IMG/VR virus record: IMGVR_UViG_2713896799_000024 | Span: 1 to 35,731 of that record | Length of the DNA: 35,731 nucleotides | Source: a virus | Taxonomy: Duplodnaviria > Heunggongvirae > Uroviricota > Caudoviricetes | Strand: one strand, 5' to 3' | Shown here: piece by piece, positions 1,465-34,868 of the stretch | Layout: each line of letters starts with the position of its first letter | Numbering within the stretch: position 1 is the first letter of the stretch | Program-made: the position numbers and the translations under genes | Notes under the pieces: generated by a model | What the model was told of the DNA's origin: nothing | Databases searched by the model: none | Seen by the model: only the letters and a program-made list of their open reading frames with translations

Positions 1465-1943
1465 TATCCCGCCTCCGTCATACCCGTGAATTTAGTCGCT
1501 ATACTGCCAGCCTTACCGATGAGCGATTCCGCCTGTTTACCGATATCGCCATAAAGCGCGGCCAGTGATTCATCAACGCGGGTGAGCGACAGCGTAAAAT
1601 CAATTTTTCGGGGTGTGCCGTCTGCAAAGAAAATACTCCCTGTTTCACTCACCTTACTGATGACATACATGCCGTAAATCATGCCGGTGCCATCCAGCAA
1701 CGGCCACGCCCGACCTTCCTCTGCCATCAGCCTGAGCGTGGTCATCGTCAGCTTTCCGCCGGTCAGTTCGGGATAAAGCACACCGGCCAGCGTGATGTTT
1801 TCCTCACCCACACCGAGAAACTGAAAGGCATCCCGTTTGCCGATACGGGAATTTGACGGCCAGCGATAATCTGATTCACGCTGCATGGTCTGGTGTGGCA
1901 GCGTCTGGCGCATAAAAACAAACATACCTAACGCGAGCATCAT
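1464..1943 (-). CDS. U: Tail protein U
   Basis: 159-aa ORF, stop/start overlap with D, position downstream of T. Confidence 0.88.
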   Translation of the reverse strand: MMLALGMFVFMRQTLPHQTMQRESDYRWPSNSRIGKRDAFQFLGVGEENITLAGVLYPELTGGKLTMTTLRLMAEEGRAWPLLDGTGMIYGMYVISKVSETGSIFFADGTPRKIDFTLSLTRVDESLAALYGDIGKQAESLIGKAGSIATKFTGMTEAG

Positions 1944-1957
1944 TTTTCGTCACCTCC

Positions 1958-4405
1958 TTAACCGTCATGCATCATGCTGGCACGGGCGCGCGCACGTTTA
2001 TCCCGCTCGTATTTTTCGAGTGCATCCTGTAACTGGCGGTCGAGCTGTGTCCCCGGCGCAGTACCGCCCGTCAGGTTGATGTGATATTCGTTTTTACTCT
2101 GGTCCACATAAGAGCGGCCAGCCGGTGCCGTGACCGGCTGATAAGCCTGATAACCTGCATAAGAGCTGGCCGCCGGAATATAACCACCGGTGCCATACGT
2201 GGCGGCATGAGTTCTGGCGGCGGTCTGGTCAAGCGTGCCTGACTCTTTGTTGATGACGCCAAGTTTTTCCAGTACCCAGTCAATACCGCCGCGCAGTTTG
2301 TTGAACGCATTAAGCGGCAGCATCAGCGCGTCAGCCAGTGCCTGCCCGAACATGACGCCCGTGTCACGGCAACGGTTCAGGGTGTCCTGGGTGGCTTTGA
2401 CCGGGGCAATCAGGTTTTTAAACCACTGCCACGCGGCCTGTAACTTTTCGCCCAGCCAGTCGAACACCGGCTTAAGTGGCGTGAACAGTTCCCCCACCGG
2501 CGCAAATGCCGCTTTCAGCCCTTCCACCACACCGCCAAAGAATGCGCTGACAGGCTCCCAGTATTTACGGATAAGCAACGCCCCGGCGACAATGGCGGCC
2601 ACCACGGCCACAACCGGCCAGCTAATCGCCCCGATGGCGGTCATAACAGCACTGCCAACCGTCGTGAAGACTGCCCCCATTGCGCCTGCTGCCGCGATGA
2701 TGGCATTGATGCCAGTGATAACCGGCCAGGCTACAAGACCAATGGCACCGATGATGCCAGTAAGCGCCAGCGCGCCACCGACAATGAGGCCGATGGTTGA
2801 CGCCAGTGATTTGTTTTTCTGGATCCAGCCGTCGAGTTTTAACACATACTTTGTGGCCGTCTGCGTGAGCTTACGCAGTGCGCCTTCCTGCTGGTCAAAC
2901 AGGTCTGTCCCCACCGCCTCATAAGCGGACTGAAACTCCTTAAAGTCACCGCCGAGGTTGTCCTGCATGATATTTACCAGCTCGGCAGTCTTCCCGTCTG
3001 AGGCTTTAAACGCAGCGGTCAGTTTGTCCAGCTTTCCGGTTGAGGCGGCAGTCATCAGCACGGCGGCGGCTGAGCTGGCCTCCTCCCCGAAAATAGTTTT
3101 CATGTATTCAGCCTGCTGGGCAGTACCGAGCCGGTTTTTCTCAAAACTGGCCTGCATTTCTTTCAGAATGGTAAATACTGGCCGGGTGTTTCCCTTGCTG
3201 TCTGAGGTTTTCACACCAAGCTCTTTGAGTGCATCCCATGCTTTTCCCGTCGGTGCCTGCAGGCGGCTTAACACGGCACGGCTTCCCGTCCCCGCCATTG
3301 AGCCTGTGATTTTTGCATCATGCAGCGCCCCGACCATTGCGGCGGTTTCTTCAATGCTGACACCGGCATTTTTTGCCACAGGTGCGGCATAGGTCAGCGC
3401 ATCGCTCATGCCGTCAAAATCGGCGGCGGTTTTGTTCATCGTCATGGAGAGAACATCCCCGATATGAGCGACCTTATCGTTTGAAAGCTGAAAGGCGGAT
3501 TTCATCCCCATCAGCAGGGCGGCGTTTTCTTCCATCGTGCGGCGGTTCGCCAGCGCCATGTTCAGCGTGACCGGCGTTGCCGCCTGAATGGCATCAACAT
3601 CCCCACCGGCTTTCGCAATAATAATCTGCGCACCGGCCGCATCATCCGCCGAGGCGGCGGTATTGTCGCCGAGCTGGCGCGCCTGTTTGCGTAGCGCGGC
3701 CATTTCGGCGGAATCTTTTGCCACACCGAGCACGGCCTGCAATTCTGAGTTTTTCTGCGCAAACTCATAACCGGGCATCAGCAGCTTAACTCCGGCCATC
3801 GTTCCCGCCGCCGCAATCCCCACACCGGCAGCGCCCACCGAGGCCATATTTCCGGCCAGTTCCTTGCCTGCCTGATAACGCTGTTTGACTGCGTTAAGTT
3901 TTGCCTGTTGCGCACTGACACGCGCCAGCGCGTCGCGCTGACGGTTAAGCTGTGCGGTGGTTTCACTGATACGGTTTTTCAGTCCCTGCTCATCATGTGC
4001 AAGATTGCGGGTATTAATTCCCACAGCGGCCAGTTCCCGTTGCTGGCGTTTAACGGAATCCGTCAGGCGGTTATATTTCGCCTGTAAGTCCTCCGCCGCA
4101 CGCTTTGCGGATTCCAGCACTTTCGCCTGAGCACGGGTCGGACGTTCGGTGTTTTTAAACTGTGTGGCAAGGGCTTCGGCTTCCTGCCGAGCCTTTTCAA
4201 GTGCATGACCAGTCACGGCGAGCTGTGCACTGGTCTTGCGAAATCCCTCAATACGGGATGCCTGACCGTTCAGCTCGCGCAGTGATTTTTGTGTTTCCCG
4301 GATATCCCCCGACAGCGATTTGCTCGCTGTGCGGATGGATTTAAACGGGCGGGATGCCTGGTCAACAGCCCTGAGCAATACCTGTAATTTTACATTGTTA
4401 CTCAT
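1958..4405 (-). CDS. T: Tail tape measure protein T
   Basis: 815-aa ORF, coiled-coil N-terminal region (Q/A/R/E-rich) and hydrophobic G/A-rich central segment typical of tape measure proteins; starts MSNNVKLQ overlapping the E' stop. Confidence 0.92.
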   Translation of the reverse strand: MSNNVKLQVLLRAVDQASRPFKSIRTASKSLSGDIRETQKSLRELNGQASRIEGFRKTSAQLAVTGHALEKARQEAEALATQFKNTERPTRAQAKVLESAKRAAEDLQAKYNRLTDSVKRQQRELAAVGINTRNLAHDEQGLKNRISETTAQLNRQRDALARVSAQQAKLNAVKQRYQAGKELAGNMASVGAAGVGIAAAGTMAGVKLLMPGYEFAQKNSELQAVLGVAKDSAEMAALRKQARQLGDNTAASADDAAGAQIIIAKAGGDVDAIQAATPVTLNMALANRRTMEENAALLMGMKSAFQLSNDKVAHIGDVLSMTMNKTAADFDGMSDALTYAAPVAKNAGVSIEETAAMVGALHDAKITGSMAGTGSRAVLSRLQAPTGKAWDALKELGVKTSDSKGNTRPVFTILKEMQASFEKNRLGTAQQAEYMKTIFGEEASSAAAVLMTAASTGKLDKLTAAFKASDGKTAELVNIMQDNLGGDFKEFQSAYEAVGTDLFDQQEGALRKLTQTATKYVLKLDGWIQKNKSLASTIGLIVGGALALTGIIGAIGLVAWPVITGINAIIAAAGAMGAVFTTVGSAVMTAIGAISWPVVAVVAAIVAGALLIRKYWEPVSAFFGGVVEGLKAAFAPVGELFTPLKPVFDWLGEKLQAAWQWFKNLIAPVKATQDTLNRCRDTGVMFGQALADALMLPLNAFNKLRGGIDWVLEKLGVINKESGTLDQTAARTHAATYGTGGYIPAASSYAGYQAYQPVTAPAGRSYVDQSKNEYHINLTGGTAPGTQLDRQLQDALEKYERDKRARARASMMHDG

Positions 4406-6726: not shown

Positions 6727-7116
6727 TGTCCTGATTTGAACTCACTCATTTTCCGACTGACAATTTACATAGCCCAAAAGTTATCAAATCTGACAGTCTG
6801 CTTTGAGTGAGAAGCAGACATTTACTTAACCGGATAGCAAGAGACTTCATACTACAGCTCATACATCATGGTTGATCCCGGAGTTTTCAGCAATGGAAAT
6901 TGCCCACATGATCGTACCGTAACCACATTAGAAGCAGGTTCACTTTGTGAATTTTGATTGTGTCACCCTATCAGTTTTGAATTTTTATAAAAAATATTCG
7001 CAAATTTGTGAATTATGAGAGACATACGAGCATGGACAACCAATGTTACTTTCATACACAATGAAGCAACATGATAAAAATACACTGACTTTAGTAAGTA
7101 AATTTAGGAGATTGCG

Positions 7117-8451
7117 ATGTTTAGCTTAATCATGGCCGGAGAACCGGACGTTTTTGACCGCTGGCCGTGTATGGACCCTGAGCTTAAAGAAGGCAAGGAA
7201 AGCTTCTCGATGTCCCGCATGCTGGAAGGCACCCCAAGCAATATTTACAGAAAATTAACACCAATAAGACCCGATACCTTAAGAGTACTCGCCAAGCTAC
7301 CGGTGTTGTTCATGACCGAAATTTATACAAAAGATGATGAATATGATACAAACAAGTACATCAGGATCAGGCTTGGGGAAATAAGAAATTTACGTAAAGA
7401 TGGTGGCGATATTTTATTTTCTTTCAAGATTAATCATGATTTTGGAGAAATAACAAATCCCCAAACGACATTATATAAAGAAACCCTAGGACTAGGATCT
7501 TTCGGGTTAAGTCGTACACATTGGGCAGTAAAAAATAAGGATTTGAATATTGTTCTGGAATTACTTGGTTTAAACAAAAAAAATAGCCATCTGAAAGGTA
7601 CAATCAAATTAAAAAAACAAACATACCCAGTAGTCGAGAATATTATAGATTATCTTAATTTCATTAAGAAAAACTTTCGTGATGGTCTCATTACCTTCTA
7701 TCGTGGACACTCTAAAAGCTCATATGAGCTTGTCCCCTCTCTTTACAGAAAAAATCAAAACGGGACGTACAGGCATCTTGCTTCAGAATCTGATTTAGTA
7801 CGTGAAATACTCAGCGCAAGACCAAATGAATTTAAGGAGGATAAATTTACGATTGATAAACTTGTCCGCATGCAGCATTATGGCTTGCCTACAAGACTCT
7901 TAGACATTACATCTAACCCACTGATAGCATTATATTTTGCTTGCTGTTCGAACCCCGATGAAAACGGACAGGTGATTTCGTTTTCAACAAACAGAAAGAA
8001 AATTAAATATTTCGACTCAGACACAGTGAGCTGTATAGCAAACTTATCACTTTTATCTTACGAAGAGTTGGAAAAATTGTCTTCCATTGATGCCAGAAAA
8101 GGTAGTATGGAGTTACCTGAACTCACTGATAAACTTGCAGACCTTATACAGAATGAAAAATCATATTTCAGAAACAGAATAATCCCTGATGACTTAAAGA
8201 AAGTTGTTTTCCTTAAGGCAAAAATAAATAATGAACGCATACAATCTCAGGCAGGAGCTTTTCTTCTGTTCGGACTTGATCCCATTTTACCGGAAACAGA
8301 TGCTGAGTTTCCTCTTAACAGAGTGGAGATAGCGAACAAAAATAAAATTCTGGAAGAGCTGGCACAGCTTAATATATCCGAAAGCACTGTATATCCCAGC
8401 ATGGAGAAAACGGCAGCAGAAATTACAAAAAAGTTTTTATCGGTATCATAA
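7117..8451 (+). CDS. Cargo gene at the P2 Z/fun position: FRG-domain protein (444 aa), function unknown, candidate anti-phage/abortive-infection protein
   Basis: AGGAG RBS 6 nt upstream of ATG; translation contains ITFYRGHSKSSYELVPSLYR and RMQHYGLPTRLLDITSNPLIALYFAC, matching the FRG-domain signature (FYRG motif, QHYGLPTRLLD block); visibly AT-rich and on the opposite strand to the flanking late genes. Confidence 0.75.
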   Translation: MFSLIMAGEPDVFDRWPCMDPELKEGKESFSMSRMLEGTPSNIYRKLTPIRPDTLRVLAKLPVLFMTEIYTKDDEYDTNKYIRIRLGEIRNLRKDGGDILFSFKINHDFGEITNPQTTLYKETLGLGSFGLSRTHWAVKNKDLNIVLELLGLNKKNSHLKGTIKLKKQTYPVVENIIDYLNFIKKNFRDGLITFYRGHSKSSYELVPSLYRKNQNGTYRHLASESDLVREILSARPNEFKEDKFTIDKLVRMQHYGLPTRLLDITSNPLIALYFACCSNPDENGQVISFSTNRKKIKYFDSDTVSCIANLSLLSYEELEKLSSIDARKGSMELPELTDKLADLIQNEKSYFRNRIIPDDLKKVVFLKAKINNERIQSQAGAFLLFGLDPILPETDAEFPLNRVEIANKNKILEELAQLNISESTVYPSMEKTAAEITKKFLSVS

Positions 8452-8681
8452 AGGGATAAACTAAAGGAAACGAAAACTAAGACTGCGCAGTCTTCAGGTG
8501 GAAGTACTCATCGGGAACGGTTTCAGGGGCAAAAACTGGAAGCTCCAATGGCCTTGAGCTGCTCCCTATAAATTAACATATCTCAATGTTATCAATGTCT
8601 GCTTTTGGCACAGAGCGGACTGTCAGATTAGGCTTTACTCTGTGCCATAGATATGTAAGCTCACACCAGAGCTCATGCAAC

Positions 8682-9209
8682 TTATTGCGGCATTTCCGGC
8701 CATTCAGGATTTGCAGGATCCACACGGCTGACCAGAACGCTGTAGCGTTCCCATGACTCCAGTCGTGCGCGCTCCTCATCCGTCGCCATATTCAGCCTGA
8801 CGGCGCGTTCCAGCGGCTGGATAACTGATTCAGCTTCGGAAAGTAACGCGGCCTTTTGTGATTCGGCCTGTTGTTGCTGTTCGTCTGCCGTATAAATCCG
8901 CTTAATCACGGCACCATCCTTAAACATCCATTTACCTGAGTCATCAGCACGTCGGTTGGAGGTAATATCAGGAACCTCGACAACGCTGAAACCTTCAGGG
9001 TTAAGCGTTGAAGCATCTCTGGTGATGCCGACAATTATATTATTCTCGTCGTAAACAATCTTTATCGTGTCTTCCTGAAAATTACTTACTTCCTCATACC
9101 AGTTTTTTCCCTCTTCGGACCATAACCAGATAACATCAAAATTTTTTGTCAGTTGATATTGGGCAACAGTTTTTGGATTACCCGCAGTAATATTTTTTAA
9201 ATGCTGCAT
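8682..9209 (-). CDS. G: Tail fibre assembly protein G
   Basis: 175-aa [33 protein letters not shown]..., directly downstream of the tail fibre gene, as P2 gpG. Confidence 0.88.
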
Positions 9210-9212
9210 AAA

Positions 9213-9827
9213 TTACACCTGTGCGACGTTATACCATGTGCCATTGATGTATTTTTGTATTGGCCTGAATACTGCGGGGTCATCACCATCGACTTCACCG
9301 ACAATACCAAGCCCGGTAATTACGTGCCCTGCTTTCTCATACATCACCCCTTTCTGCATGGTCTGGACAACACGTGTGCCAAGTCTGATATCTCTCACAT
9401 AGCGGGAATCAAAGTTACCGTAATCCGAGGGATTAACACGCCCCGTAATATTTATGGTCTTATTACTTTGAATGCTTCCGGAAACAAAGCGCATAACATG
9501 GACGTTATTAGCATAAACATCCAGATTACCATCGCCATTTTGTTTAAATCCGGTGTCGTTATCACCAAGAACAATAGAGTTCCCACCCAACGCGTTATTC
9601 GTGCCAAGTGCCAGCCCGCCATCAATCCTGGCACCATTACCAACAGACACAACTCCTGTTCTTAAGTTGATGCCGAATGGCCTTAATGGCCCAATATCTC
9701 CATTTTCACCCTCATTTTCTCGTGTAGGAATGATATACAGGTTTTCTTCAGAACGGCGAAAAATAGCCCCAAAAGATGAATTAAATATCCTCAGTGCATT
9801 GACTGTAGATATTTTGCGTATTTTCAT
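9213..9827 (-). pseudogene. H: Tail fibre H, 3' fragment separated from the 5' part by an IS21-family insertion
   Basis: 204-aa ORF with G/N-rich beta-strand-like tail-fibre C-terminal sequence; its apparent ATG lies within the IS terminal repeat region and has no RBS; lengths of the two fragments (487+204) approximate intact P2 H. Confidence 0.75.
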
Positions 9828-10007
9828 GAAAGGAGATCACTCAATAACTTCCATCGAGATCGGGTAATAACATTTGAACAGATCGCTGAATAACATCGAT
9901 GGAGATCACTTTTGACTCATTTTGTTATTCAGTGATCTCCATCAATGTTATTGGAACTTCACAGGTGTGTTGATCTGTATCTTTTGCCATTCCGGTAAAG
10001 GATACCT

Positions 10008-11549
10008 ATGCCAACAGTTCCAATTTCTATGAGAAAACTTAAAGAAATTCTTAGGCTTAAATACGGTGTTGGACTCAGCCATCGACAAATTGGTCGTAGT
10101 CTTGCAATCTCCCCTTCCGTTGTATCCAGATATGCTAATCGGGCGGCTCAACTTGGCATAAAGCAGTGGCCCTTACCTACAGGATGGGATGATACAAAAC
10201 TAAAACATGCGTTCCTTCAGACCCAGGTTAAGATGAAGAAGCACTCTCTGCCTGACTGGGCTACAGTACACCGGGAACTGCGTAATAAATGCGTGACGCT
10301 GCAGCTACTCTGGGAAGAATACTGTGAGCGTAATCCAGGCGGTTTTTACAGCTATAACCATTACTGCCGGATGTACCGTGAATGGCTCAAAACCACTTCA
10401 CCATCAATGCGTCAGGTACATAAAGCTGGCGAAAAACTTTTCGTTGATTACTGTGGACCTACCGTTGGCGTTACCGACCCTGAGACCGGAGAAATAAGAA
10501 CTGCTCAGGTCATCGTAGCTGTTCTCGGGGCATCAAGTTACACATGGGCAGAGGCCACCTGGTCTCAGCAGCTTGAAGACTGGGTGATGAGTCATGTTCG
10601 CTGCTTCCAGTGGTTGGGTGGCGTTCCTGAACTTGTTGTTCCGGACAATCTGAAAAGCGCCACATCCAGGGCATGTAAGTATGATCCTGACGTTAACCCT
10701 ACCTACCAGCAGATGCTTGAGCATTATAATGTCGCAGTTTTGCCTGCGCGGCCACGTAAACCGAAAGATAAAGCCAAAGCTGAAGTTGGCGTTCAGGTTG
10801 TTGAACGCTGGATCATGGCCCGAATCAGGCATGAGATCTTCTACAGCCTTGCATCGCTTAATCAGCGCATTCGGGAGTTGCTGGAAAGACTGAATAACAA
10901 AATAATGCAGAAGTTGGGTTATTCACGTGCAGAACTCTTCATCCAGCTTGATAAACCCGCACTGAAGCCTCTTCCTGAAGCCAGTTACAGTTACACCCTG
11001 GTGAAGAAAGTCAGAGTTCATGCCGATTACCACGTGGAAATCGACAAACATTACTACTCGGTTCCATGTTCGCTGTTAGGCCAGCAACTGGAAGCATGGA
11101 TCTCCGGAGAACTGGTAAGACTCTTCAATCAGGGGCAGGAGGTTGCTGTGCACCCGCGCAAGCGTACTTATGGCTACAGTACCCGCAACGAGCACATGCC
11201 TGAAGCTCATCGACAGCATGCCACCTGGACGCCAGAGCGTCTTCTGGAATGGGCGGGGCACATAGGCAGTGAAACTCATAGTTATGTGCTTCATATACTG
11301 AACTCTCGTCCACATCCGGAACAAAGCTATCGCTTCTGCCTTGGACTCCTGAACCTTCATAAAAAATACAGTAAAGCCAGACTTAATGCAGCATGTGCAA
11401 GAGCTCTGAAAACAAAGGTATGGCGTCTGTCAGGTATTAAATCGATCCTGGAAAAAGGTCTGGATAAACAACCTGTTCAGGATCCAAAACCAGATCTGTT
11501 ATCCACGATGGAACACGAAAACGTACGCGGCAGTGAGTATTACCACTGA
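10008..11549 (+). CDS. istA: IS21-family transposase IstA
   Basis: 513-aa ORF with N-terminal HTH region (LSHRQIGRSLAISPSVVSRY) and central DDE integrase-like region characteristic of IstA. Confidence 0.85.
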   Translation: MPTVPISMRKLKEILRLKYGVGLSHRQIGRSLAISPSVVSRYANRAAQLGIKQWPLPTGWDDTKLKHAFLQTQVKMKKHSLPDWATVHRELRNKCVTLQLLWEEYCERNPGGFYSYNHYCRMYREWLKTTSPSMRQVHKAGEKLFVDYCGPTVGVTDPETGEIRTAQVIVAVLGASSYTWAEATWSQQLEDWVMSHVRCFQWLGGVPELVVPDNLKSATSRACKYDPDVNPTYQQMLEHYNVAVLPARPRKPKDKAKAEVGVQVVERWIMARIRHEIFYSLASLNQRIRELLERLNNKIMQKLGYSRAELFIQLDKPALKPLPEASYSYTLVKKVRVHADYHVEIDKHYYSVPCSLLGQQLEAWISGELVRLFNQGQEVAVHPRKRTYGYSTRNEHMPEAHRQHATWTPERLLEWAGHIGSETHSYVLHILNSRPHPEQSYRFCLGLLNLHKKYSKARLNAACARALKTKVWRLSGIKSILEKGLDKQPVQDPKPDLLSTMEHENVRGSEYYH

Positions 11550-11560
11550 TACGGGATCCA

Positions 11561-12310
11561 ATGATGAATCATCTTTACGAACAACTGACCGCACTTAAAC
11601 TCACCGGCTTCCGTGATGCGCTTAAAAAGCAACTTGCTCAGCCGGGCACATACCAGGAGCTGGGCTTCGAAGAACGCCTGTCATTACTGACAGCAGAAGA
11701 ACTAACCTGCCGTGAAAACAGGAAGGCAGAGCGTCTGATCAAACATGCACGGTTCAGACTTAATGCTGAGTTATCAAAGCTGGATTATCGTAACAATAGA
11801 GGGCTGGACAGGGCCCTCATCCGTTCACTCAGTCAGGGAAACTGGTTAACCCTGAAACAAAATATTTTACTGACCGGGGCCACCGGCAGCGGTAAAACGT
11901 TCCTGGCATGTGCACTTGGTCATAATGCCTGCCGACAGGGATACAAGGTCTACTATTATCGCCTTAAAGCGCTGATGGAACAGTGCTATCAGGGGCATGC
12001 TGATGGAAGATACAGCAAACTTTTGACCAGGCTGAATAATAGCGATCTGCTGCTTCTGGATGACTGGGGGCTGGAACCTCTCTCATCAGAACAGCGTAGC
12101 GACCTGCTGGAAATAGTGGATCTGATGTACCAACGAGGCTCAATCATCGTAGTGAGCCAGTTGCCGGTGGAAAACTGGTACAAAATGATCGGAGACTCCA
12201 CACATGCGGATGCCATCCTAGATCGACTGGTTCATGGCAGTATCAAGATCGAACTTAAAGGAGAATCAATGCGGAAAATACAATCTCCGTTGACCGAAGG
12301 AGATCAGTGA
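11561..12310 (+). CDS. istB: IS21-family helper ATPase IstB
   Basis: 249-aa ORF with Walker A LLTGATGSGKTFLA and Walker B LLLLDDWG; immediately downstream of istA. Confidence 0.88.
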   Translation: MMNHLYEQLTALKLTGFRDALKKQLAQPGTYQELGFEERLSLLTAEELTCRENRKAERLIKHARFRLNAELSKLDYRNNRGLDRALIRSLSQGNWLTLKQNILLTGATGSGKTFLACALGHNACRQGYKVYYYRLKALMEQCYQGHADGRYSKLLTRLNNSDLLLLDDWGLEPLSSEQRSDLLEIVDLMYQRGSIIVVSQLPVENWYKMIGDSTHADAILDRLVHGSIKIELKGESMRKIQSPLTEGDQ

Positions 12311-12380
12311 AGGTAATTTAAAAACGGTTCTGTGAAAGTGACACGAACCGATCTCCATCGATGTTACTCACCGATCTCCT

Positions 12381-13844
12381 TCACGGTAATACGCATATTT
12401 TTACTTCACTGCTGAAAAGGGCTTTAACAAGAACATACAGAGCATCCCATTTAAGATTCATCAGGTCTTTTGTTGTGGTGCTCTGGCGACTTCTCCATTT
12501 GAAATATTCATTGCCGTTGTCACCTGTTTCAAACCACATATATGAATCAGTATCGCTGTCGGCATCATTTTTAAATCCAATCTTTGCCCAGTCAGTATTT
12601 CGAATCCAGGCAAGGATTGAGTCGTTTTCAAAAGTAAGCCCACCGGACAAGGTATCGCCATTCTTTTGCACCGCGTTCCTGGCCCTGTTTACCGTTTCCT
12701 GCAAACCGAGGTATTCGATAACGGCAGTAACGGTCGCTTTGGCAAGAATATCCCGTCCGACTTTTGTCAGGGTTGCCAGGCTGGCAACATCATTCCCCGT
12801 AAAATACGGAAACCTGTCTGCCGCAGTAGCAAGCCCCGCCAGCGCCGTCAGGGTAGCATCTTTCGGTTGCTTACCCGCAAGCGCATTAGTCATGGTGGTA
12901 GCAAAATTCGGGTCATTGCCCAGCGCCGCCGCCAGCTCGTTCAGCGTATTCAGTGCGTCAGGCGACGAGTCTACAAGGGCGGCAATCGCGGCCATAACGA
13001 AAGCCGTGTTTGCGATCTGAGTATTATTCGTTCCCTGTCGCGCAGTTGGCGTCGTTGGCGTTCCGGTCAGTGCAGGGCTGTTTAATGGCGCTTTTTTGTT
13101 CGTTTCATCCATTACCGTCTTAACGGCTTTTGGTGTTGCGGCGAGCGTTTCAGACGTGCTGTTGGTGGCACTACTGAGCTGGACAAGGCCTTTTCGCGCT
13201 GTGGTGGCGTCCTGTGCGGTATATTTCCCGTTAGCCAGGTCATACGCGGCCTTTACCGCTTTCGGCGTTGCGGCCAGTGTTTCAGACGTGCTGTTGGTCG
13301 CACTGCTTAACTGAGTAAAACCTTTTGCGGTCAGCGAGGCGTCCGGGTGACGTCGTGACTGTTCGTGCTCTGCAATTTTGTCATCAACGTAATCTTGCGT
13401 CGCCATCACCGTTGTGGTGTCAATGGTCAGCTCCACTGAGGCCACACTGCTGACGATGATGACCATGCGGCAGGTCTGCGAACGCCCTGAGCCTTCGGCA
13501 AGGGCAGGTTTATAACTTTCGGCCATGTTCGCCACGGCAATTAACGTTCCCGCATCATCGTACAGGCCAAGCTCCCGCATCCAGAAACCGCCCACCTCCG
13601 GCGGAATAATCAGCTCTGCGATAATATAATTACTGTTTCGTTTGTCCTGGCTGATTTTATTCAGCGCATGTCGCCAGACTTCATGGATAAGCCCGGTCTG
13701 TCCGGCATCCGGGACAGGCAATTTACCACCGCCATCCCCGACGGCCATCGTGGTAATGTTGACCTTTCGCCCTCCCGGCGCGGTTGCCGCTGCCAGCTTT
13801 GCTGCACCGGCAGTGGTGATAACGGTTTTGAATTTTGTGCTCAT
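12381..13844 (-). pseudogene. H: Tail fibre H, 5' fragment; reading frame runs into the IS21-family element and terminates
   Basis: 487-aa ORF starting MSTKFKTVITTAGAAKLAAA (P2 gpH N-terminus); last residues (KICVLP-stop) are encoded by the IS terminal repeat. Confidence 0.85.
13119..13330 (-). repeat. Tandem duplication inside H (two ~80-bp homologous units, period 132 bp), encoding repeated QLSSATNSTSETLAATPKAVK
   Basis: Near-identical nucleotide blocks at ~13119-13198 and ~13251-13330; the repeat is visible in the protein and in the antisense ORF 13096-13314. Confidence 0.8.
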
Positions 13845-13854
13845 TATTCCTCAC

Positions 13855-14385
13855 TTATCCGGGGTAAACCGTAATTACATCGCCGTCATAAGCCACACCA
13901 CCGGCGAACAGATAGCCGGGAATATCCCGGGTAATGTTCAGGCCAATAAGGTGGCGGCTTGCAGGTTTGGCATCGGCAATCAGCCGTTCCATTTCCTGAT
14001 ACATTGCCTCTGTGATGCCGCTTTCCAGTACACCAATATCAAGCCGGAAGGTGCCGGGCGGGTCACTGTTTTCCCACCACTCTGTCACGTTGATGAGATA
14101 GCCGAGCGGCTCCACCACACGCCGGATTGCACCTATTGTGCCTTTATGACAGTGGATGAAATACGCATCGCGGATAATGGCGCGTTTTGTCGCTTCCGGC
14201 CACTTTTCATCCCACCTGTCGACCGAAAACGCCCACGCCAGCCACGGCAGCAGATTTGCCGGACAGGTGTCTGGGTTCCACAGCTCACGAATACTGACCG
14301 GCGTTTTTTCAATTTCCGCACAGGCTTTTGCGGCGGCGACCTCAAGCGGTGATGAGCCGGTCGGCAGCAGTCGCGAATCACTCAT
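13855..14385 (-). CDS. I: Baseplate/tail protein I
   Basis: 176-aa ORF, overlaps J stop, position between J and H. Confidence 0.88.
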   Translation of the reverse strand: MSDSRLLPTGSSPLEVAAAKACAEIEKTPVSIRELWNPDTCPANLLPWLAWAFSVDRWDEKWPEATKRAIIRDAYFIHCHKGTIGAIRRVVEPLGYLINVTEWWENSDPPGTFRLDIGVLESGITEAMYQEMERLIADAKPASRHLIGLNITRDIPGYLFAGGVAYDGDVITVYPG

Positions 14386-15286
14386 CCGAGCCTCCGGTCA
14401 CGACGCGGTATTCGGTACAGAAAGACGCCTGCGTACTGTTGAGCACGATGTCGGCCAGTGGTGCAGCCAGTTCGACACGCTGCACACCTTCCACATGCAA
14501 AGCGGCATAAATGGCAGACAGACGGATGTCACGCCCCAGCCGGTGCTGTGCCGTGATATACGCTTCCAGTTTTTTCACGGCGGCAGCGCGAATGGGTTCG
14601 CTTTCGGGACCAGGGTAAAGATACAGCGTGGCGTTTATCTGGTATTCAACGATGGCGGCAGACTGCACGGTCACGCGGTCGGCCACCGGCCTGACGTCCT
14701 CGCCATTAAGGGCGTTACGCACCACGGCCAGCAGGTCTTCGGATGCGACACCGTTATTTTCACGTGACAGCACAGAGATGGTGACGCAGGCCGGAGACGG
14801 ACTGGTGACAGAGATATCCGCGACACGCCCGTCGGCACTGCGACCATGATACTGATAGGCACCCACCGACCCGGCGACGCTTAAGCCCTCAAACGCCTGC
14901 TGAATACGCAGACGATAATCGGTGTCAGACTCCATCACTGCCGGTGTCGGCGGAATGGTCGAATCATCTGCCGGGGTGATAGTCAGGCGCGTGGTGTTGT
15001 AATTGGCACCAATCACATCAAGGTCATTACCGGCTGCACAGGCCAGCATCACCGCCCGTGCAGCCTCATTCACACGCTGACGCCAGATAAGCTCACGATA
15101 AGCATTTTCCTCCAGCAGTTTGACGAGAGGCTCAGATTCCAGTGTCAGGGTACGGGCGACCGCCTCCTGCTGGTCTTCCGGGTAAAGGGAAATCAGTGTC
15201 GCCTTGCGTTCGGCAAGAATGGTTTCAAAGTCCAGCTCCTCGACCACATCCGGTGCGGGTAGCTGGTTCAGGTCGATAATCGGCAT
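14378..15286 (-). CDS. J: Baseplate assembly protein J
   Basis: 302-aa ORF, baseplate J family, P2 order W-J-I. Confidence 0.9.
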   Translation of the reverse strand: MPIIDLNQLPAPDVVEELDFETILAERKATLISLYPEDQQEAVARTLTLESEPLVKLLEENAYRELIWRQRVNEAARAVMLACAAGNDLDVIGANYNTTRLTITPADDSTIPPTPAVMESDTDYRLRIQQAFEGLSVAGSVGAYQYHGRSADGRVADISVTSPSPACVTISVLSRENNGVASEDLLAVVRNALNGEDVRPVADRVTVQSAAIVEYQINATLYLYPGPESEPIRAAAVKKLEAYITAQHRLGRDIRLSAIYAALHVEGVQRVELAAPLADIVLNSTQASFCTEYRVVTGGSDE

Positions 15287-15290
15287 GGTT

Positions 15291-15638
15291 TCAACTCACA
15301 GGGATGGTTAACGAAAGTGGCTGGCCGGTGTCGTTGTGCTGGCCGGTTAACGTGACCGTCATTCGCCCGTCAAAGCTGCGCGCCGTGGTGACGGATGACA
15401 GGGTGACGCGGGGTTCCCATTTCAGCACCGCCATGTAACAGGCGACCTTAATCTGCAACTCAAGCGCCGGGGTCTGCGGCTGGTCAATCATTGATGCCAG
15501 CAACGAGCCGTAATCACGACGCATCACCCGTGAGCCGACCGGTGTACGCAGGATATCGCCGATACTCTGGCTGATATGCTCAAGGTCAGTGACAGTCAGG
15601 CCATCACTGCGATTCATTCCGAGATAACGCGCTGTCAT
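15291..15638 (-). CDS. W: Baseplate protein W (gp25-like)
   Basis: 115-aa ORF between V and J. Confidence 0.88.
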   Translation of the reverse strand: MTARYLGMNRSDGLTVTDLEHISQSIGDILRTPVGSRVMRRDYGSLLASMIDQPQTPALELQIKVACYMAVLKWEPRVTLSSVTTARSFDGRMTVTLTGQHNDTGQPLSLTIPVS

Positions 15639-16270
15639 AAAGGACTCCCGGTTGTGCCACCGCTGTCGCCGGGGTGTTTATGGGTATGCAGTACCTTACC
15701 GTTTGATGAGAGTTCACCGCCGGTATGTTCAATGTTGCCGCGCATCGTCCCGCCCTTCTGCACTTCCAGCGTGCCGATAATCAGCCTGTTGGTGCAGACC
15801 ACCTCCGGGGTGTCCAGGGTGACGCGGGTTGATGCTTTCACCATGACCACCGGCACCGTGGCAGTAACAGAATCAGAGGCCGTCACGCTGGCCGTTTTAA
15901 TTCCGCTTACCGTAAGTGCACTGGTTTCGGGTTCATATTCAATCACCGCCCCGTCAGGGAAACGGATATGCAGGGCATCCGCCGACGCAGACGGCGCGGG
16001 GTTATCGCCGGAATAAATCCCCGGCAGAACGAACGCCGTGTCGAGTTCACCGCCCACGGCCAGAATCAGCACCTGTTCCCCCACGGAAGGTGCCCACCAT
16101 GTGCGCGAACGCCCGGCGCGATGGGTCAGCCACTGAAGCCAGTCGGTGCACATGCCGCCGGTCTGCACACGGCAGCGACCGGCGTTAAGGTCGGTTTCGA
16201 CGACAAGGCCGGTACGAATCATGTTGCGCAGTGCGCGCGCGAGTTCCTGAATATTTGCGAGAGTGTTCAT
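15635..16270 (-). CDS. V: Baseplate spike/assembly protein V
   Basis: Translation from MNTLANIQELARALRNMIRTGLVVETD... (211 aa); the upstream in-frame extension to 16315 is rejected because it abuts the late-promoter dyad. No clear SD before either candidate start. Confidence 0.85.
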   Translation of the reverse strand: MNTLANIQELARALRNMIRTGLVVETDLNAGRCRVQTGGMCTDWLQWLTHRAGRSRTWWAPSVGEQVLILAVGGELDTAFVLPGIYSGDNPAPSASADALHIRFPDGAVIEYEPETSALTVSGIKTASVTASDSVTATVPVVMVKASTRVTLDTPEVVCTNRLIIGTLEVQKGGTMRGNIEHTGGELSSNGKVLHTHKHPGDSGGTTGSPL

Positions 16271-16317
16271 AACGGGAAGGATGCCGCCAAGAAAGCAGCA
16301 CGGCAAACCTCCCATTA

Positions 16318-16335
16318 TGTACTATAGCTGACACA
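16318..16335 (-). promoter_or_regulatory. Candidate Ogr-dependent late promoter dyad (P_V), TGT-N12-ACA
   Basis: tgtactatagctgacacaACAG: perfect TGT-N12-ACA with the ACAACAG core shared with 6675 and 24279; located between the S-V cargo gene and V. Confidence 0.6.
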
Positions 16336-16352
16336 ACAGCATATTTTGTGTG

Positions 16353-17879
16353 TTATTCCTCATTCTCTTTTCCATTTAAGAGCATTCTTTTTTCACATAT
16401 TTTTTCAACAAGCAAGTTTGCAAATGTATCTAGCTGTGCGTATATATCCTCACTAGGATTTATGGTAAAACCTCCAATGCCATTGGCAGTATCAAACATG
16501 CCAACAGGTGCATCACTATATCTTAAAGGAATAACACACCCATCACCAAATCTATCCCTAAATGTATCACCTTCAAATTTGCACCATATTCTAGTTGGAT
16601 AATCCCTACTCAAAAACGGAATTACAAAAACAGACTCACTCCTATAAATTGGAGCAAGATATTGTTCTACATCTTCAGAAAGTATTCTGGCCTGCTCATT
16701 GAAATCATAAAAAACAGATAACTCATTCTCAATCAGCTTTTGATTTAAATATTCCGCATGATTTCTATTAGCTCCAGCAAATGATAAAGCAAAGTCATAT
16801 TTCGACTTAAACTCAAATGATGTGAACCCTATCTTCTCCGCAAGCTTGCTCCATAACAAATTCTTTATATAATAATAAAACTTGGGATCTTCGATTGAAA
16901 TCTCCGTAGTTTCATCATTATAATGAATAACATCCGAAAAATCAGGATTGCTCTCATAATGCGTTTTTAAATGGCCTCGCGTCAGAATTTGCCCAACGCT
17001 ATTACGATGATTAGGATTGTTAATTAAATAACTTGTCAAATTTAAAGAACGCTCATCTTCTTTAGATAACCAATATAAAACGTGGAGATATGGAGCTCTA
17101 CTACCCTTTTTAACCCGCTGGCCTTTCACAAAGCGAACGACTATATCATTGAATCTATAGCTAAGATCCTGAATCACTGTTTCTTTAAGTGATTCATAGC
17201 TAATATTTGTTTCCCGAGGAGATTCTAACTCTTCTGTGATATCAGCCTGTAAACAAGCATTATAAGCCAACATTTGCGCCAGATGAAATGCCCCATCCGA
17301 GTCCTTTACAATATCTTCTTTTACATTTAGTTTGAAATTAAGCGCATTCTCACCTTTTTCTAGCAACTCCCTGACCTTATATTCCGGATTGGACTCAAAT
17401 TTAACAATGGAGATTCGATTTAGTAAATCCGGTGATAAATCAATCAGTGATTTGCCTGTTTTATTTATACCTATAATAATCAACTTAGAATCTAAGGGTT
17501 GTTCATCCGCTAAATTTTTCAGCAAGTCAGATATTTTATGCTTCAACTCATCATCTAACTTATGAAAATCATCAATAATCACCCCACCGAAACCACTCGT
17601 TGTTATTATATTTTCAATCTGGGCTTTATCTTCCTTTTTCCTTCCAGACAATACTTTAAACTCTTTAATTATCCGACTACTGGTCTCGAATTTTAACTTT
17701 TCAATAACCTGTCTTACGCAAGTCGTCTTCCCTATACCTGATGGCCCTTCAATAATTACCCCTCTTCCCGCTGTTCTTATCGACACATAGAGGTGTTTAT
17801 ACTCGTTAGGTTCAACAAAAGTAATTGTCGGGATACCCGAAAGTTTAAAGACATCTTCTAAATACACTGGTTCGCGCAT
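16353..17879 (-). CDS. Cargo gene between S and V: P-loop NTPase (N-terminal) fused to TIR domain (C-terminal), 508 aa; candidate single-gene anti-phage defence protein
   Basis: Walker A GPSGIGKTT, Walker B GGVIIDDFHKLD; C-terminal YDFALSFAGANRNHAEYL...SVFYD...SVFVIPFLSRDYPTRIWCKFEG matches the TIR fold signature, including the WC..E glutamate that is catalytic in TIR NADases. AAGGGA RBS before ATG; visibly AT-rich. Confidence 0.8.
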   Translation of the reverse strand: MREPVYLEDVFKLSGIPTITFVEPNEYKHLYVSIRTAGRGVIIEGPSGIGKTTCVRQVIEKLKFETSSRIIKEFKVLSGRKKEDKAQIENIITTSGFGGVIIDDFHKLDDELKHKISDLLKNLADEQPLDSKLIIIGINKTGKSLIDLSPDLLNRISIVKFESNPEYKVRELLEKGENALNFKLNVKEDIVKDSDGAFHLAQMLAYNACLQADITEELESPRETNISYESLKETVIQDLSYRFNDIVVRFVKGQRVKKGSRAPYLHVLYWLSKEDERSLNLTSYLINNPNHRNSVGQILTRGHLKTHYESNPDFSDVIHYNDETTEISIEDPKFYYYIKNLLWSKLAEKIGFTSFEFKSKYDFALSFAGANRNHAEYLNQKLIENELSVFYDFNEQARILSEDVEQYLAPIYRSESVFVIPFLSRDYPTRIWCKFEGDTFRDRFGDGCVIPLRYSDAPVGMFDTANGIGGFTINPSEDIYAQLDTFANLLVEKICEKRMLLNGKENEE

Positions 17880-17909
17880 ATATTCCCTTTAAGATTAGTG
17901 TAAAAAGAT

Positions 17910-17945
17910 GATCTATAATATTTTTTTTCGCTATTTTCAAGTCAA
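17910..17945 (-). promoter_or_regulatory. Candidate sigma70-like promoter for the ATPase-TIR gene
   Basis: Minus strand reads TTGACT (plus 17940-17945), 16-19 bp spacer, AATATT/TATTAT (plus ~17915-17923), about 35 bp upstream of the ATG; AT-rich context. Confidence 0.4.
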
Positions 17946-17994
17946 CAAGCGATTGCCCCCCTAATGATTTCACCAATGATGATTAACTATGTTT

Positions 17995-18444
17995 TTATTC
18001 TAGATGGTTAGAGATAATCCCTTCAATCATCTGCACATCCTCACCGGTAAAGCCGAGCAGAGGACGCGCCGGATAATCAATTTTCTTACCGTCTTTCCGG
18101 TTTTCTTCCGACAGACCGAACTGATGCACACTGGCGATTTTCGGTGACTTTCCGCCGTAAAACTCCATTGATGCCTGTTCCGGGCTGGCGCGGATATGCA
18201 AAAAACGACTGGTGATAAGTTTCGCAAACATTTTTCGTTTAACGCGACCGGTCTTTTTTCTGGCGCTCTGCTGCTGGCGTGGTGCGTAGGGTGTGCCGTC
18301 CGGGGCTTTCTGTGCCATCACCCGACGCTGCTGACTCTGACGCAGACGTTTCGCCAGTTCGGCACTCAGTCGCCGACGCCCTGACGGTGACAGCGACTCA
18401 ATCAGTCCGGTCAGCCGGTCTTCAAAACGCTTAAACTCATTCAT
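17995..18444 (-). CDS. S: Tail completion protein S
   Basis: 149-aa ORF MNEFKRFEDRLTGLIESL..., overlaps R stop. Confidence 0.88.
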   Translation of the reverse strand: MNEFKRFEDRLTGLIESLSPSGRRRLSAELAKRLRQSQQRRVMAQKAPDGTPYAPRQQQSARKKTGRVKRKMFAKLITSRFLHIRASPEQASMEFYGGKSPKIASVHQFGLSEENRKDGKKIDYPARPLLGFTGEDVQMIEGIISNHLE

Positions 18445-18904
18445 CCCACTTGCTCACCAGTTCGCCATTGATATAAAGCTCCATCGGGCGGGTGACCGGC
18501 TCCGGCGGCGGGGGTTCCGGGATATTCTTCACATGCAGTGCGCCGTCCACCTCACTGACCAGCGTGCGCTCGGTCAGCATCAGGCTGATGCTGATATCAA
18601 AGCTGCTGTCATTGTTGATGTCTGCATAAAACGTGAAGCCCTTTTTCTGGCCTTCGTCGGTGGTCATGATGTCGGGCTGATTTTCCCGCAGCCACGCCAG
18701 CACCGGCACGATGAGCAGGTCAAAATCACCGGTAAAGTCGGTCACAATGACATTGAGCGTGTAACGCTTTTCGAATGACAACGACGTCGCCAGTGTGGAG
18801 GCAATACTCCCGTTATCCACGAATATCCGCAGCATCTCGGGACTGGTTTTCAGCACCGTGACGGCATCAGTCAGCGCCCTGCGCAGGCTGTCGGGTTTGA
18901 GCAT
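18437..18904 (-). CDS. R: Tail completion protein R
   Basis: 155-aa ORF downstream of the lysis cassette. Confidence 0.88.
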   Translation of the reverse strand: MLKPDSLRRALTDAVTVLKTSPEMLRIFVDNGSIASTLATSLSFEKRYTLNVIVTDFTGDFDLLIVPVLAWLRENQPDIMTTDEGQKKGFTFYADINNDSSFDISISLMLTERTLVSEVDGALHVKNIPEPPPPEPVTRPMELYINGELVSKWDE

Positions 18905-19157
18905 CGTTTTCGTCCTGACAGTGTTTAATCATTTTTACCTGGCTGGCACAGCGTGCCAGCGCGTTCTCAAGCTGCCGGATATCGGCACTTAAATCGCCGT
19001 TCGTCTCCGGGTCACTGCCCGGCATCGGGCAAAGACTCACTTTCGGGCAGGCGTTGTGGACAATCACTGGCGTCAGTGCAGGCCGGGCGCTGGTGCAACC
19101 GGCGCACAGCATCAGGTAGGTCAGCACCGTACCAGCGGCGAAAATCTTCGTTTTCAT
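18867..19157 (-). CDS. lysC: Outer-membrane spanin LysC (Rz1-like lipoprotein), overlapping the lysB 3' end and R 5' end
   Basis: 96-aa ORF with signal peptide plus lipobox-like LCAGC and proline-rich body; embedded/overlapping arrangement typical of o-spanins. Confidence 0.75.
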   Translation of the reverse strand: MKTKIFAAGTVLTYLMLCAGCTSARPALTPVIVHNACPKVSLCPMPGSDPETNGDLSADIRQLENALARCASQVKMIKHCQDENDAQTRQPAQGAD

Positions 19158-19437
19158 TAAGTAACCTCATGATGGTTTTCTCGCGCTGTGCTTCACGCTT
19201 CGCGGCGTTCTCCAGCTCCTGACGCAGTGCCACCTGCGCCAGCTCGTTTTTGTCTGCCCTGGTGAGTGCAACATGAAGCTGGTTTTTCAGCATGGTGATG
19301 GTCGTCTGCTGTTCACTGGCGACGTTGTTCGCCCTGTCCAGCGAGGCGCGCAGGCTGGCATTTTTGTGTTTCACCAGAAACAGCCCCGCTACCGCCAGCG
19401 ATAACAACACGACCAGCACAATCATCAGCTTTGACAT
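19012..19437 (-). CDS. lysB: Inner-membrane spanin LysB (Rz-like)
   Basis: 141-aa ORF, N-terminal TM helix followed by coiled-coil. Confidence 0.85.
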   Translation of the reverse strand: MSKLMIVLVVLLSLAVAGLFLVKHKNASLRASLDRANNVASEQQTTITMLKNQLHVALTRADKNELAQVALRQELENAAKREAQREKTIMRLLNENEDFRRWYGADLPDAVRRLHQRPACTDASDCPQRLPESESLPDAGQ

Positions 19438-19850
19438 AATTCCCGCCCCTCAAGACGCTGACGACAGGCTTTACGTATCAGCCGGAAAAACAGCGACGCC
19501 ACAAGATAAATCAGCGCGGTAAAAATCCACCCGGCAGCGACCAGCGAGATAAACGTCGCCACCATCACCACCAGAGCCGCTGCCCGTCTGCGCCACGGCA
19601 CCGGCTGCAAAAACAGCGACGTGACAATCTTCACGGCCAGCGATTCCGGCGACAGCTCCCGCCCGTAGCGTTCCAGCACATACTCAGTGGCATACACGCC
19701 GACACCAACGGCAACCACACAGATAACCGTCGCCAGAATCGCCCAGGCAGCGACAAAATTGACGGCCACGCTCTGCGGGTAAATCAGGGACAGTGCCAGC
19801 ATCAGCGCCAGCGACACATTCAGCATCAGTGAAAGGGATAATTTCTTCAT
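19425..19850 (-). CDS. lysA: Lysis regulatory membrane protein LysA
   Basis: 141-aa multi-TM ORF between K and lysB. Confidence 0.8.
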   Translation of the reverse strand: MKKLSLSLMLNVSLALMLALSLIYPQSVAVNFVAAWAILATVICVVAVGVGVYATEYVLERYGRELSPESLAVKIVTSLFLQPVPWRRRAAALVVMVATFISLVAAGWIFTALIYLVASLFFRLIRKACRQRLEGRELCQS

Positions 19851-28505: not shown

Positions 28506-28608
28506 ACTCAGCTCCGTTATGGCTATAATCGCATAAATAATAAGCACTTATATTGCAATCATCTAGTTAAATACACAATATTTATGACTCCGAAATTTCA
28601 TTAAATCA

Positions 28609-33399: not shown

Positions 33400-33537
33400 A
33401 TGTCTATTAAAAAGCTCGATGATGGTCGTTATGAAGTGGACGTCAGACCGCAGGGTGCAGATGGAAAACGTATCAGGCGGAAATTTAAAACTAAAGGTGA
33501 AGCTCAAGCATTCGAACGTCATGTGCTGGTTAACTAC
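33400..33537 (+). pseudogene. int: Integrase, 5' fragment (46 codons) truncated by IS2 insertion
   Basis: GGAGGG RBS then MSIKKLDDGRYEVDVRPQGADGKRIRRKFKTKGEAQAFERHVLVNY, terminated by the TAG that forms the first 3 nt of IS2. Confidence 0.9.
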
Positions 33538-33628
33538 TAGACTGGCCCCCTGAATCTCCAGACAACCAGTATCACTTAAATAAGTGATAGTCTTAATACT
33601 AGTTTTTAGACTAGTCATTGGAGAACAG

Positions 33629-34857: not shown

Positions 34858-34868
34858 GGGCAAATCCA

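Follow-up and report, generated by a model that had tools for sequence, protein, structure and literature searches.

The closest described relatives of the locus analysed here are the IS21-family element IS5376, the insertion of ISEc12 into the Escherichia coli gene tssM, and the P2-like (Peduovirus) phages P2 and pro147. In the IS21 family, end repeats recur with a 23-bp spacing, and IS5376 generates a 5-bp target duplication in vitro (PMC10122671), with the mechanism of the two proteins IstB and IstA described for the family (PMC11208146; PMC10122671). The ISEc12 copy in tssM is flanked by a 5-bp duplication, ACTGC, and its junction has served as a marker of ST131 (PMC10711316). RefSeq annotates ISEc12, at ≥99% identity, in over 2000 genomes of E. 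coli, where its genes bear the name "IS21-like element ISEc12 family", and it is a multi-copy element, occupying a median of three and up to 17 places per carrier genome. We discuss below a 35,731-nt stretch of viral DNA (hereafter the window, to which all coordinates refer) in which the tail-fibre gene (H) of an E. coli prophage of the P2-like type (Peduovirus) has, almost certainly, received a full-length ISEc12 by transposition.

The ISEc12 element, its ends and its genes

The insertion sequence (IS) in the window comprises the following features:

9815..12395, + strand: complete ISEc12 (IS21 family), 2581 bp, with termini 5'-TGCGTATT...AATACGCA-3'
9815..9952, + strand: left terminal inverted repeat region, a terminal TG followed by GGAGATC-type cores
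10008..11549, + strand: istA, intact, encoding a 513-aa DDE transposase (NF033546; Pfam rve and Mu-transpos_C_2)
11561..12310, + strand: istB, intact, encoding an AAA+ helper ATPase of 249 aa from the first ATG
12339..12395, + strand: right terminal inverted repeat region, with cores R2 (GATCTCC at 12350) and R1 (12373), 23 bp apart

An initial annotation, made from the letters of the window, had located the element at 9803-12408; it does lie there, those limits overshooting its true ends by 12 nt on the left and 13 nt on the right. Neither the termini nor the target duplication could be resolved by eye at that stage; both are now set by comparison with nine copies at other sites, all of them 2581 bp long, and similarity with six copies in other contexts ends exactly at 9815 and 12395. 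The 2581-bp IS used alone as query is matched with 100% coverage and 99.8-100% identity in the sampled full-length copies, and the copy in the window shows no difference from the consensus of ten copies. The element is ISEc12, a common and already catalogued E. coli IS, and by its sequence it is intact. Because it is identical to the multi-copy consensus and retains intact reading frames, this copy is presumably capable of transposition.

The inverted multi-copy GGAGATC repeats that had been described at the ends are indeed there: all seven exact copies in the 35.7-kb window (about three would be expected for the whole window) fall inside the element, six of them within ~130 bp of one of its ends, and if one CGAGATC variant is counted in, each end carries an array of them with 23-bp spacing. 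At the left end, cores L1 (9832) and L2 (CGAGATC, 9855) are 23 bp apart and L3 (9901) follows 46 bp after L2, while an inverted core copy at 9934 pairs with L3 in an inverted repeat of 22 nt (95%; its arms at 9889-9910 and 9931-9952). The right end closes with CA at 12394-12395, and an extra core of opposite orientation occurs at 12299, in the 3' end of istB. The element, whose ends read 5'-TG...CA-3', thus has at least two direct repeats ~23 bp apart at each end, an arrangement taken from PMC10122671 as a criterion for IS21-family membership.

Its coding content is likewise that of the family, with istA followed by istB on one strand, 11 nt apart, a DDE triad in IstA and Walker A and B motifs in IstB. 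IstA scores 310.5 bits against NF033546 (IS21 family transposase; cut-off 160), its catalytic residues D147/D213/E259 align with D124/D187/E233 of IS5376 IstA, and it does not differ from the consensus translation common to eight of nine other copies (RefSeq WP_001298859.1). IstB scores 270 bits against NF038214 (cut-off 200) and 227 bits against PF01695, contains the Walker motifs A (GATGSGKT, residue 106) and B (LLLLDD, residue 163), and is identical to the protein of most copies (RefSeq WP_001016257.1, where the start is placed at 11564, giving 248 aa). A length of 513 aa, which had been thought unusual for the family, is in fact normal for a large branch of it: among the best 150 representatives of 50%-identity clusters, nearly all relatives are ~500-530 aa long and align end to end, and IstA is longer only than the IS5376 protein of the solved structures (chains of 373-406 aa).

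The split tail-fibre gene and its junctions

The gene into which ISEc12 is inserted, in the opposite orientation, and its surroundings are as follows:

12396..13844, - strand: H 5' part, codons 1-483 (from Pfam domains, reconstruction and comparison with intact genes)
9213..9814, - strand: H 3' part, codons 482-681 and stop (from reconstruction and comparison with intact genes)
9810..9814, no strand: left copy of the target duplication TATTT (flanks identical at n=5 only)
12396..12400, no strand: right copy of the target duplication, matching the left
8682..9209, - strand: tail-fibre assembly gene (P2 G type), intact (Caudo_TAP, 1.8e-36)

The exact IS/H junctions are 9814/9815 and 12395/12396, which puts the insertion point at codons 482/483; both codons are present in the two H parts because of the target duplication. 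Deleting the IS and one duplication copy yields an in-frame 2046-nt gene for a 681-aa P2-type H, whose restored junction agrees at every position, over 648 nt, with the uninterrupted genes of six E. coli genomes; over its full length it differs from the intact gene in one E. coli genome (L010) by 8 nt and 1 aa. Since the restored gene matches uninterrupted genes, the two H fragments are contiguous parts of one gene. Its assignment to the P2 type rests on the N-terminal domain, the fibre repeats, the I and G neighbours (Tail_P2_I and Caudo_TAP ORFs) and full-length similarity to gpH, the 5' part having Pfam Phage_tail_fib N-terminal, Phage_fiber_2 and Gp34_trimer domains (PF12571, 2.5e-58; PF03406, 2.1e-41). 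Gene G follows the split H as part of one late operon, and its 175-aa product equals in length the assembly protein beside the intact gene in L010, from which it differs at 6 aa.

The reading of the initial annotation, that an IS21-family istA/istB element splits H, is therefore upheld by the termini, the 5-bp duplication and the in-frame restoration of 681 aa; non-contiguous H fragments and missing IS termini, either of which would have spoken against it, were both looked for and neither was found, and no other observation spoke against it. The fragments of 487 and 204 aa reported then do exist as ORFs, but their ends are chimeric, each including four IS-encoded residues. The 487-aa ORF (12381-13844, - strand) consists of 483 H residues followed by CVLP, with its stop at 12381-12383, and the 204-aa ORF (9213-9827, - strand) has its ATG (9825-9827) and first four residues (MKIR) inside the IS.

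As expected for the IS21 family, a short direct target duplication, TATTT, flanks the element on both sides, and other ISEc12 copies have duplications of 5-7 bp. This bears on the idea that the H pieces stem from different genes brought together by an IS-mediated rearrangement, that is, by recombination or deletion between two ISEc12 copies. Such events have a precedent at another locus (L003), where the flanks of ISEc12 show no target duplication and belong to two unrelated genes, a lysozyme fragment on one side and a tail-fibre-assembly fragment on the other. Here, in contrast, a perfect 5-bp duplication flanks the IS, the joined flanks are in frame and across their junction agree with uninterrupted genes at 100% identity, and they match a single intact allele from which they differ at only 8 of 2046 nt. 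On account of the duplication, the restored junction and the single-allele match, we reject a rearrangement, whose likelihood is very small.

The matching 5-bp duplication at both junctions also argues against an error of assembly, with a multi-copy repeat collapsed or wrongly joined and H in reality intact. ISEc12 is multi-copy, and short-read contigs do break at it (L015-L017). Yet the exact chimeric 487-aa product recurs, by exact-protein look-up, in at least four other public assemblies from different sources, one of which, a 5.16-Mb contig, contains the complete IS at this position and shows 100% identity over 12.8 kb. An insertion common to at least four other assemblies is not an artefact; given these different sources and the duplication, the assembly explanation is rejected as very improbable. 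Among the 5426 complete E. coli genomes searched, the exact insertion site was not found, the best matches having the IS 77 bp away.

Predicted course of the insertion and choice of target

Transposition of ISEc12 into an intact H would have proceeded by the established IS21 mechanism. IstB-ATP decamers would bind and bend the target DNA, and an IstA tetramer, having synapsed both repeat-bearing ends, would join these ends by their 3'-CA to the target strands with a 5-bp stagger, and gap repair would produce the duplication. In the disrupted gene, translation is expected to stop after 483 H and 4 IS-encoded residues, leaving a truncated H that would keep the N-terminal, baseplate-attachment part and lack the C-terminal, receptor-binding part. 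The 3' fragment would have neither a start codon nor a promoter of its own. Its expression from the IS end seems unlikely: the left end of the IS showed no sigma-70-like promoter directed outward and, on direct reading of the sequence, no Shine-Dalgarno-like sequence lies ahead of the ATG at 9825-9827. Inside the IS, terminator-like sites on the H-sense strand number six, against 2.2 expected, and expression of the 3' H fragment and of downstream G is probably reduced by polarity. With H split by the IS, no full-length fibre can be made, just as had been proposed at the outset, and any particles from the prophage would be without working tail fibres.

Whether the position within H has a significance of its own is a separate matter, for the proposal of a target preference adds to a simple ISEc12 insertion and does not replace it. 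It holds that ISEc12 prefers the AT-rich start of the variable C-terminal part of H, and that hosts keep the immobilised prophages for their defence-type cargo, free of the risk of lysis. Independent ISEc12 insertions do occur in the same 100-nt stretch of H: there are at least three within 80 bp, two of which (L006, ATATA, and L008, ATATG) are in different alleles but at the same homologous position, which lies 77 bp away from the site in the window. ISEc12 has also entered a further H allele (L007) and, at L009, a tail-fibre assembly gene. No other part of H is as low in GC as this stretch (34%; the first 1200 nt have 52-58%), the IstB mechanism has been proposed to favour deformable DNA (PMC11208146), and the cargo of the prophage includes three defence-type genes. 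An even sample of ISEc12 copies tells otherwise, its targets being very broad, with no P2-type H among ~45 full-length copies; they include portal, lambda-type J, sheath, lom and tssM (ImcF) as well as xylH, ypfH, adhesins and plasmid tra/rep genes, and on this basis the tail fibre is rejected as a dominant ISEc12 target. Moreover, H matches ranked high in the complete-genome search because the query included 35-nt H flanks, and surviving IS insertions are expected anyway in non-essential, AT-rich accessory DNA. A preference of this kind seems unlikely, and a shade less likely still is its fuller version, an ISEc12 hotspot in the low-GC stretch of H that repeatedly immobilises defence-carrying P2-like prophages and so aids their domestication by the host.

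State of the prophage and comparison with known systems

In the same window, IS2 splits the integrase gene, so that with IS2 in int and ISEc12 in H the prophage is doubly crippled, decaying and immobilised. Most of its other identified P2-type genes (replication gene A, terminase, portal, sheath, tape measure, baseplate) are full-length ORFs, for which reason prophage predictors would call it intact, whereas it should score as defective because H and int are both interrupted. In annotation, the 487-aa and 204-aa ORFs become one IS-disrupted pseudogene, and the junctions 9814/9815 and 12395/12396 are usable as a lineage marker. The split of H by ISEc12 is ordinary prophage decay, a well-understood and already known kind of event; the insertion reveals no new biology, and its value lies mainly in annotation.

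Among phages, pro147 (Escherichia phage, Peduovirus) has a tail fibre that shares 99.4% identity with the restored 681-aa H along the full length of the latter, and it matches the window between 12401 and 35731 over 80% of that interval at 97.6% identity. With P2 gpH the restored H is 83.5% identical over 90% of its length, and the gene order I-H-G is the same as in P2. Unlike P2 and pro147, the prophage in the window has H split at codons 482/483, IS2 in int, and other cargo at the variable P2 loci. As to the element, IS21 and IS5376 (PMC10122671; PMC11208146) have the same istA-istB order on one strand, aligned DDE residues and an AAA+ IstB. Their ends are built alike, with two or more direct repeats at a spacing of 23 bp and a terminal 3'-CA, and the target duplication is again 5 bp long. 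In sequence, IstA here bears little similarity to IS5376 IstA (E 3e-13, residues 107-391), and at the C-terminus it extends ~110 residues beyond the solved chains (513 against 373-406 aa). The left end has three repeats and an inverted internal copy where the prototype is drawn with two repeats. The tssM insertion in E. coli ST131 clade C (PMC10711316) involves the same element, a 5-bp duplication and gene inactivation by simple insertion; the target alone differs, being there tssM with ACTGC and here a P2-type tail-fibre gene with TATTT.

A tail-fibre gene interrupted by ISEc12

The P2-type tail-fibre gene H is, as the initial annotation had proposed, split by an IS21-family element, and the four open reading frames (ORFs) named there were all found, the 513-aa and 249-aa products also passing the NCBIfam equivalogs "IS21 family transposase" and "IS21-like helper ATPase IstB", with 310.5 bits (cut-off 160) and 270 bits (cut-off 200), respectively. 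Together with the neighbouring assembly gene, they are arranged as follows:

8682-9209, minus strand: tail-fibre assembly protein (Pfam), downstream of the 204-aa ORF
9213-9827, minus strand: 204-aa ORF, the 3' fragment of H plus an IS-derived start
10008-11549, plus strand: istA, 513-aa ORF (Pfam rve integrase core and Mu-transposase C-terminal barrel)
11561-12310, plus strand: istB, 249-aa ORF (Pfam IstB_IS21)
12381-13844, minus strand: 487-aa ORF (Pfam phage tail-fibre N-terminal and fibre-repeat families)

A megablast search with 9780-12430 as query against 5426 complete E. coli genomes found matches in 2108 of them, mostly at 99% identity or more, with annotation of the matching genes as "IS21-like element ISEc12 family". 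In six comparison copies, situated in a plasmid trbJ, an Ag43-type adhesin, a lysozyme/tail-fibre-assembly junction, a dehydrogenase, a UvrD-type helicase and another P2-like prophage, likeness to the window ends at identical bases (left TGCGTATTTTCATG..., right ...CGGTAATACGCA), and this common end of similarity across different contexts defines the element as 9815-12395 (2581 bp). The istA/istB pair is therefore bounded by IS termini, 5'-TG...CA-3', and by a direct repeat, TATTT (9810-9814 and 12396-12400), whose 5 bp are all that matches on both sides; with these, the termini and target duplication that had at first escaped resolution are fixed. Target duplications at other ISEc12 copies span 5-7 bp (ATATA, CATGGT, ATATT, AGTATTT, ATATG, TATTG, GATTTTT), and 5-bp duplications have been published for ISEc12 in tssM of ST131 (PMC10711316) and for IS5376 in vitro (PMC10122671). 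All ten ISEc12 copies compared are 2581 bp long, and that in the window, with istA and istB both intact, has no differences from their consensus. The copy at the lysozyme/tail-fibre-assembly junction (in NZ_CP196264.1, 1532908-1535800) has no target duplication and lies between a truncated lysozyme gene on its left and a truncated tail-fibre assembly gene on its right, which implies an IS-associated deletion or recombination with loss of most of a prophage late region.

Removal of 9815-12395 and one TATTT leaves one open frame of 2046 nt, made up of 681 codons and a stop. Six E. coli genomes have uninterrupted "phage tail protein" genes that match the 648 nt across the restored junction at 100% identity, and the restored H differs by 8 nt and 1 aa from the intact gene of strain CFSAN051542 (681 aa), sharing 99.4% identity over its full length with the tail fibre of Escherichia phage pro147 and 83.5% over 90% of its length with P2 gpH. 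The single frame and the intact alleles exclude the alternative that the two fragments are not contiguous parts of one gene. Within H, the duplicated bases are nt 1445-1449 (codons K482 and I483). The fragment sizes first given, 487 and 204 aa, hold as ORF lengths but not as pure H content, since the former comprises 483 H residues and CVLP from the IS end, while the latter starts within the IS, from which its ATG and initial four residues (MKIR) come, its H-derived part proper being 9213-9814.

Consequences for the fibre and the prophage

That the prophage can make no full-length fibre, as already suggested, follows straight from the sequence, nor was another gene of the H type noticed among the ORFs of the window. 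The truncated H would be expected to keep its N-terminal attachment part and to lose its C-terminal receptor-binding part. Because the 3' piece lacks its own start codon, the IS end showed no outward sigma-70-like promoter, and terminator-like sites on the H-sense strand within the IS are in excess (6 versus 2.2 ± 1.5 expected), expression of this piece and of the adjoining assembly gene G is probably lowered. By the mechanism described for IS21 (PMC11208146; PMC10122671), the target DNA would have been bent by ATP-bound IstB decamers, an IstA tetramer would have synapsed both repeat-bearing ends, the 3'-CA ends would have been joined to the target strands with a 5-bp stagger, and gap repair would have produced the TATTT duplication. 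At 34%, GC content around the insertion site (H nt 1401-1500) is the lowest in H, the initial 1200 nt having 52-58%, in keeping with the proposed selection of deformable DNA by IstB.

The window is a P2-like prophage, with recognisable P2-type genes (D, sheath, terminase, portal, replication gene A) and a match to phage pro147 across 12401-35731, over 80% of length at 97.6% identity. It carries a second IS and three cargo genes:

7117-8451, plus strand: FRG-domain protein, 444 aa (PADLOC candidate defence family PDC-S15, E 1.6e-98)
16353-17879, minus strand: AAA+/TIR protein, 508 aa (AAA+ ATPase N-terminal and TIR-like C-terminal domain)
27576-28547, minus strand: DUF4238 protein, 323 aa (PADLOC "DUF4238-Pers", near-perfect, E 2.7e-219)
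33538-34868, plus strand: IS2 (IS3 family), 1331 bp, with duplication ACTAC at 33533-33537 and 34869-34873

The cargo genes occupy variable loci of the P2 map: the FRG-domain gene, of low GC content (about 34-39%), lies between the tail-fibre assembly and sheath genes, at the counterpart of the P2 Z/fun locus; the AAA+/TIR gene, whose product has a TIR_2 score just under the Pfam cut-off and a weak PADLOC PDC-S59 match (1.5e-19), is flanked by tail genes S and V, the place of the non-essential orf30 in P2; and the DUF4238 gene has the portal gene on one side and replication gene A on the other, at the counterpart of the P2 tin/old locus. IS2 breaks the reading frame of the P2-type integrase some 42 codons in, and taking it out with one ACTAC gives back a full-length ORF of about 333 aa that stops at the window's final base; with ISEc12 in H, the prophage has thus lost both integrase and tail fibre. 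In a related P2-like prophage (NZ_CM168008.1, 3043149-3048049), a different IS3-family element (at about 1731-3064 of that locus), 95.7% identical to the window's IS2, separates the repressor gene from int, some 105 bp upstream of where IS2 sits in the window; the C-int region, too, may be hit repeatedly by IS elements.

The insertion in other genomes

The chimeric 487-aa product is possible only with this insertion. It is recorded on at least six contigs, with four places shown: the 5.16-Mb contig JAQJCX010000001.1 of GCA_036679865.1, where the layout H'-istB-istA-'H-G-FRG (H' and 'H, 5' and 3' parts of H) is as in the window and identity to window 7007-19850 is 100% across 12,844 bp, and three shorter contigs whose ends lie at the IS, of which two come from ENA metagenome assemblies and the third from an NCBI genome assembly. 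The genome with the 5.16-Mb contig, or one closely akin to it, is probably where the window comes from. Strains bearing the insertion have therefore been sampled more than once. An assembly artefact is ruled out by the target duplication and by this product on other contigs.

Independent ISEc12 entries into P2-type tail-fibre or assembly genes were seen in other E. coli strains (L006-L009, comparison loci):

L006, 3007-5587: same H allele as the window, 77 bp from the window's site, duplication ATATA
L007, 2508-5088: another H allele, IS oppositely oriented relative to H, duplication GATTTTT
L008, 2507-5087: H allele with a different C-terminal part, duplication ATATG
L009, 2507-5087: tail-fibre assembly gene, duplication TATTG

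The L006 and L008 sites occupy exactly homologous positions in two different H alleles, and both, like that of the window, fall within the lowest-GC stretch of H (34% GC). ISEc12 may have a true local hotspot there, but a target that is AT-rich and dispensable is enough to account for the recurrence. Among about 45 full-length copies in an even sample of all ISEc12 matches, targets were broad and none was a P2-type H, making H a recurrent rather than dominant target.

ISEc12 among IS21-family elements

The insertion is a textbook case of a catalogued IS entering a catalogued phage gene rather than a novel one, and serves annotation and as a strain marker. The multi-copy inverted GGAGATC end repeats initially described are borne out: all seven exact sites in the window fall inside ISEc12 (about three expected for the whole window). 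Left-end cores (plus strand) lie at 9832, 9855 and 9901, one being a CGAGATC variant, with spacings of 23 and 46 bp; right-end cores (minus strand) lie at 12350 and 12373, 23 bp apart, with an extra, oppositely oriented core at 12299, the 3' end of istB; and the two arrays are mutually inverted (I1, 53 nt, 72%; I2, 28 nt, 93%; I18, terminal 16 nt, 81%). An inverted core at 9934 pairs with the third left-end repeat, the two forming a 22-nt, 95% complementary inverted repeat with a 20-nt gap (9889-9952) just upstream of istA, which could be an IstA-binding site or regulatory hairpin.

This layout agrees with published descriptions of IS21-family ends, each of which has a terminal 3'-CA and at least two direct repeats at a spacing of 23 bp (PMC10122671). 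With the IS5376 IstA catalytic residues D124, D187 and E233 aligning to D147, D213 and E259 of ISEc12 IstA, and with Walker A (GATGSGKT) and Walker B (LLLLDD) motifs in IstB, all the family's defining features that can be judged from sequence are present. The initial observation is confirmed and its interpretation supported, save the remark that IstA, at 513 aa, is unusually long. In a profile-free HMMER scan of 1.84 billion cluster representatives, 3203 clusters matched IstA at E <= 1e-30, and the best 150 of these, 38-52% identical, were nearly all about 500-530 aa long and aligned from about residue 1-8 to 512-513, the few shorter ones being fragments; judged by these representatives, the length is normal in a large branch of the family. 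The IS5376 IstA chains with solved structures (373-406 aa) align only to residues 107-391 of ISEc12 IstA, which thus has a C-terminal extension relative to the IS5376 prototype.
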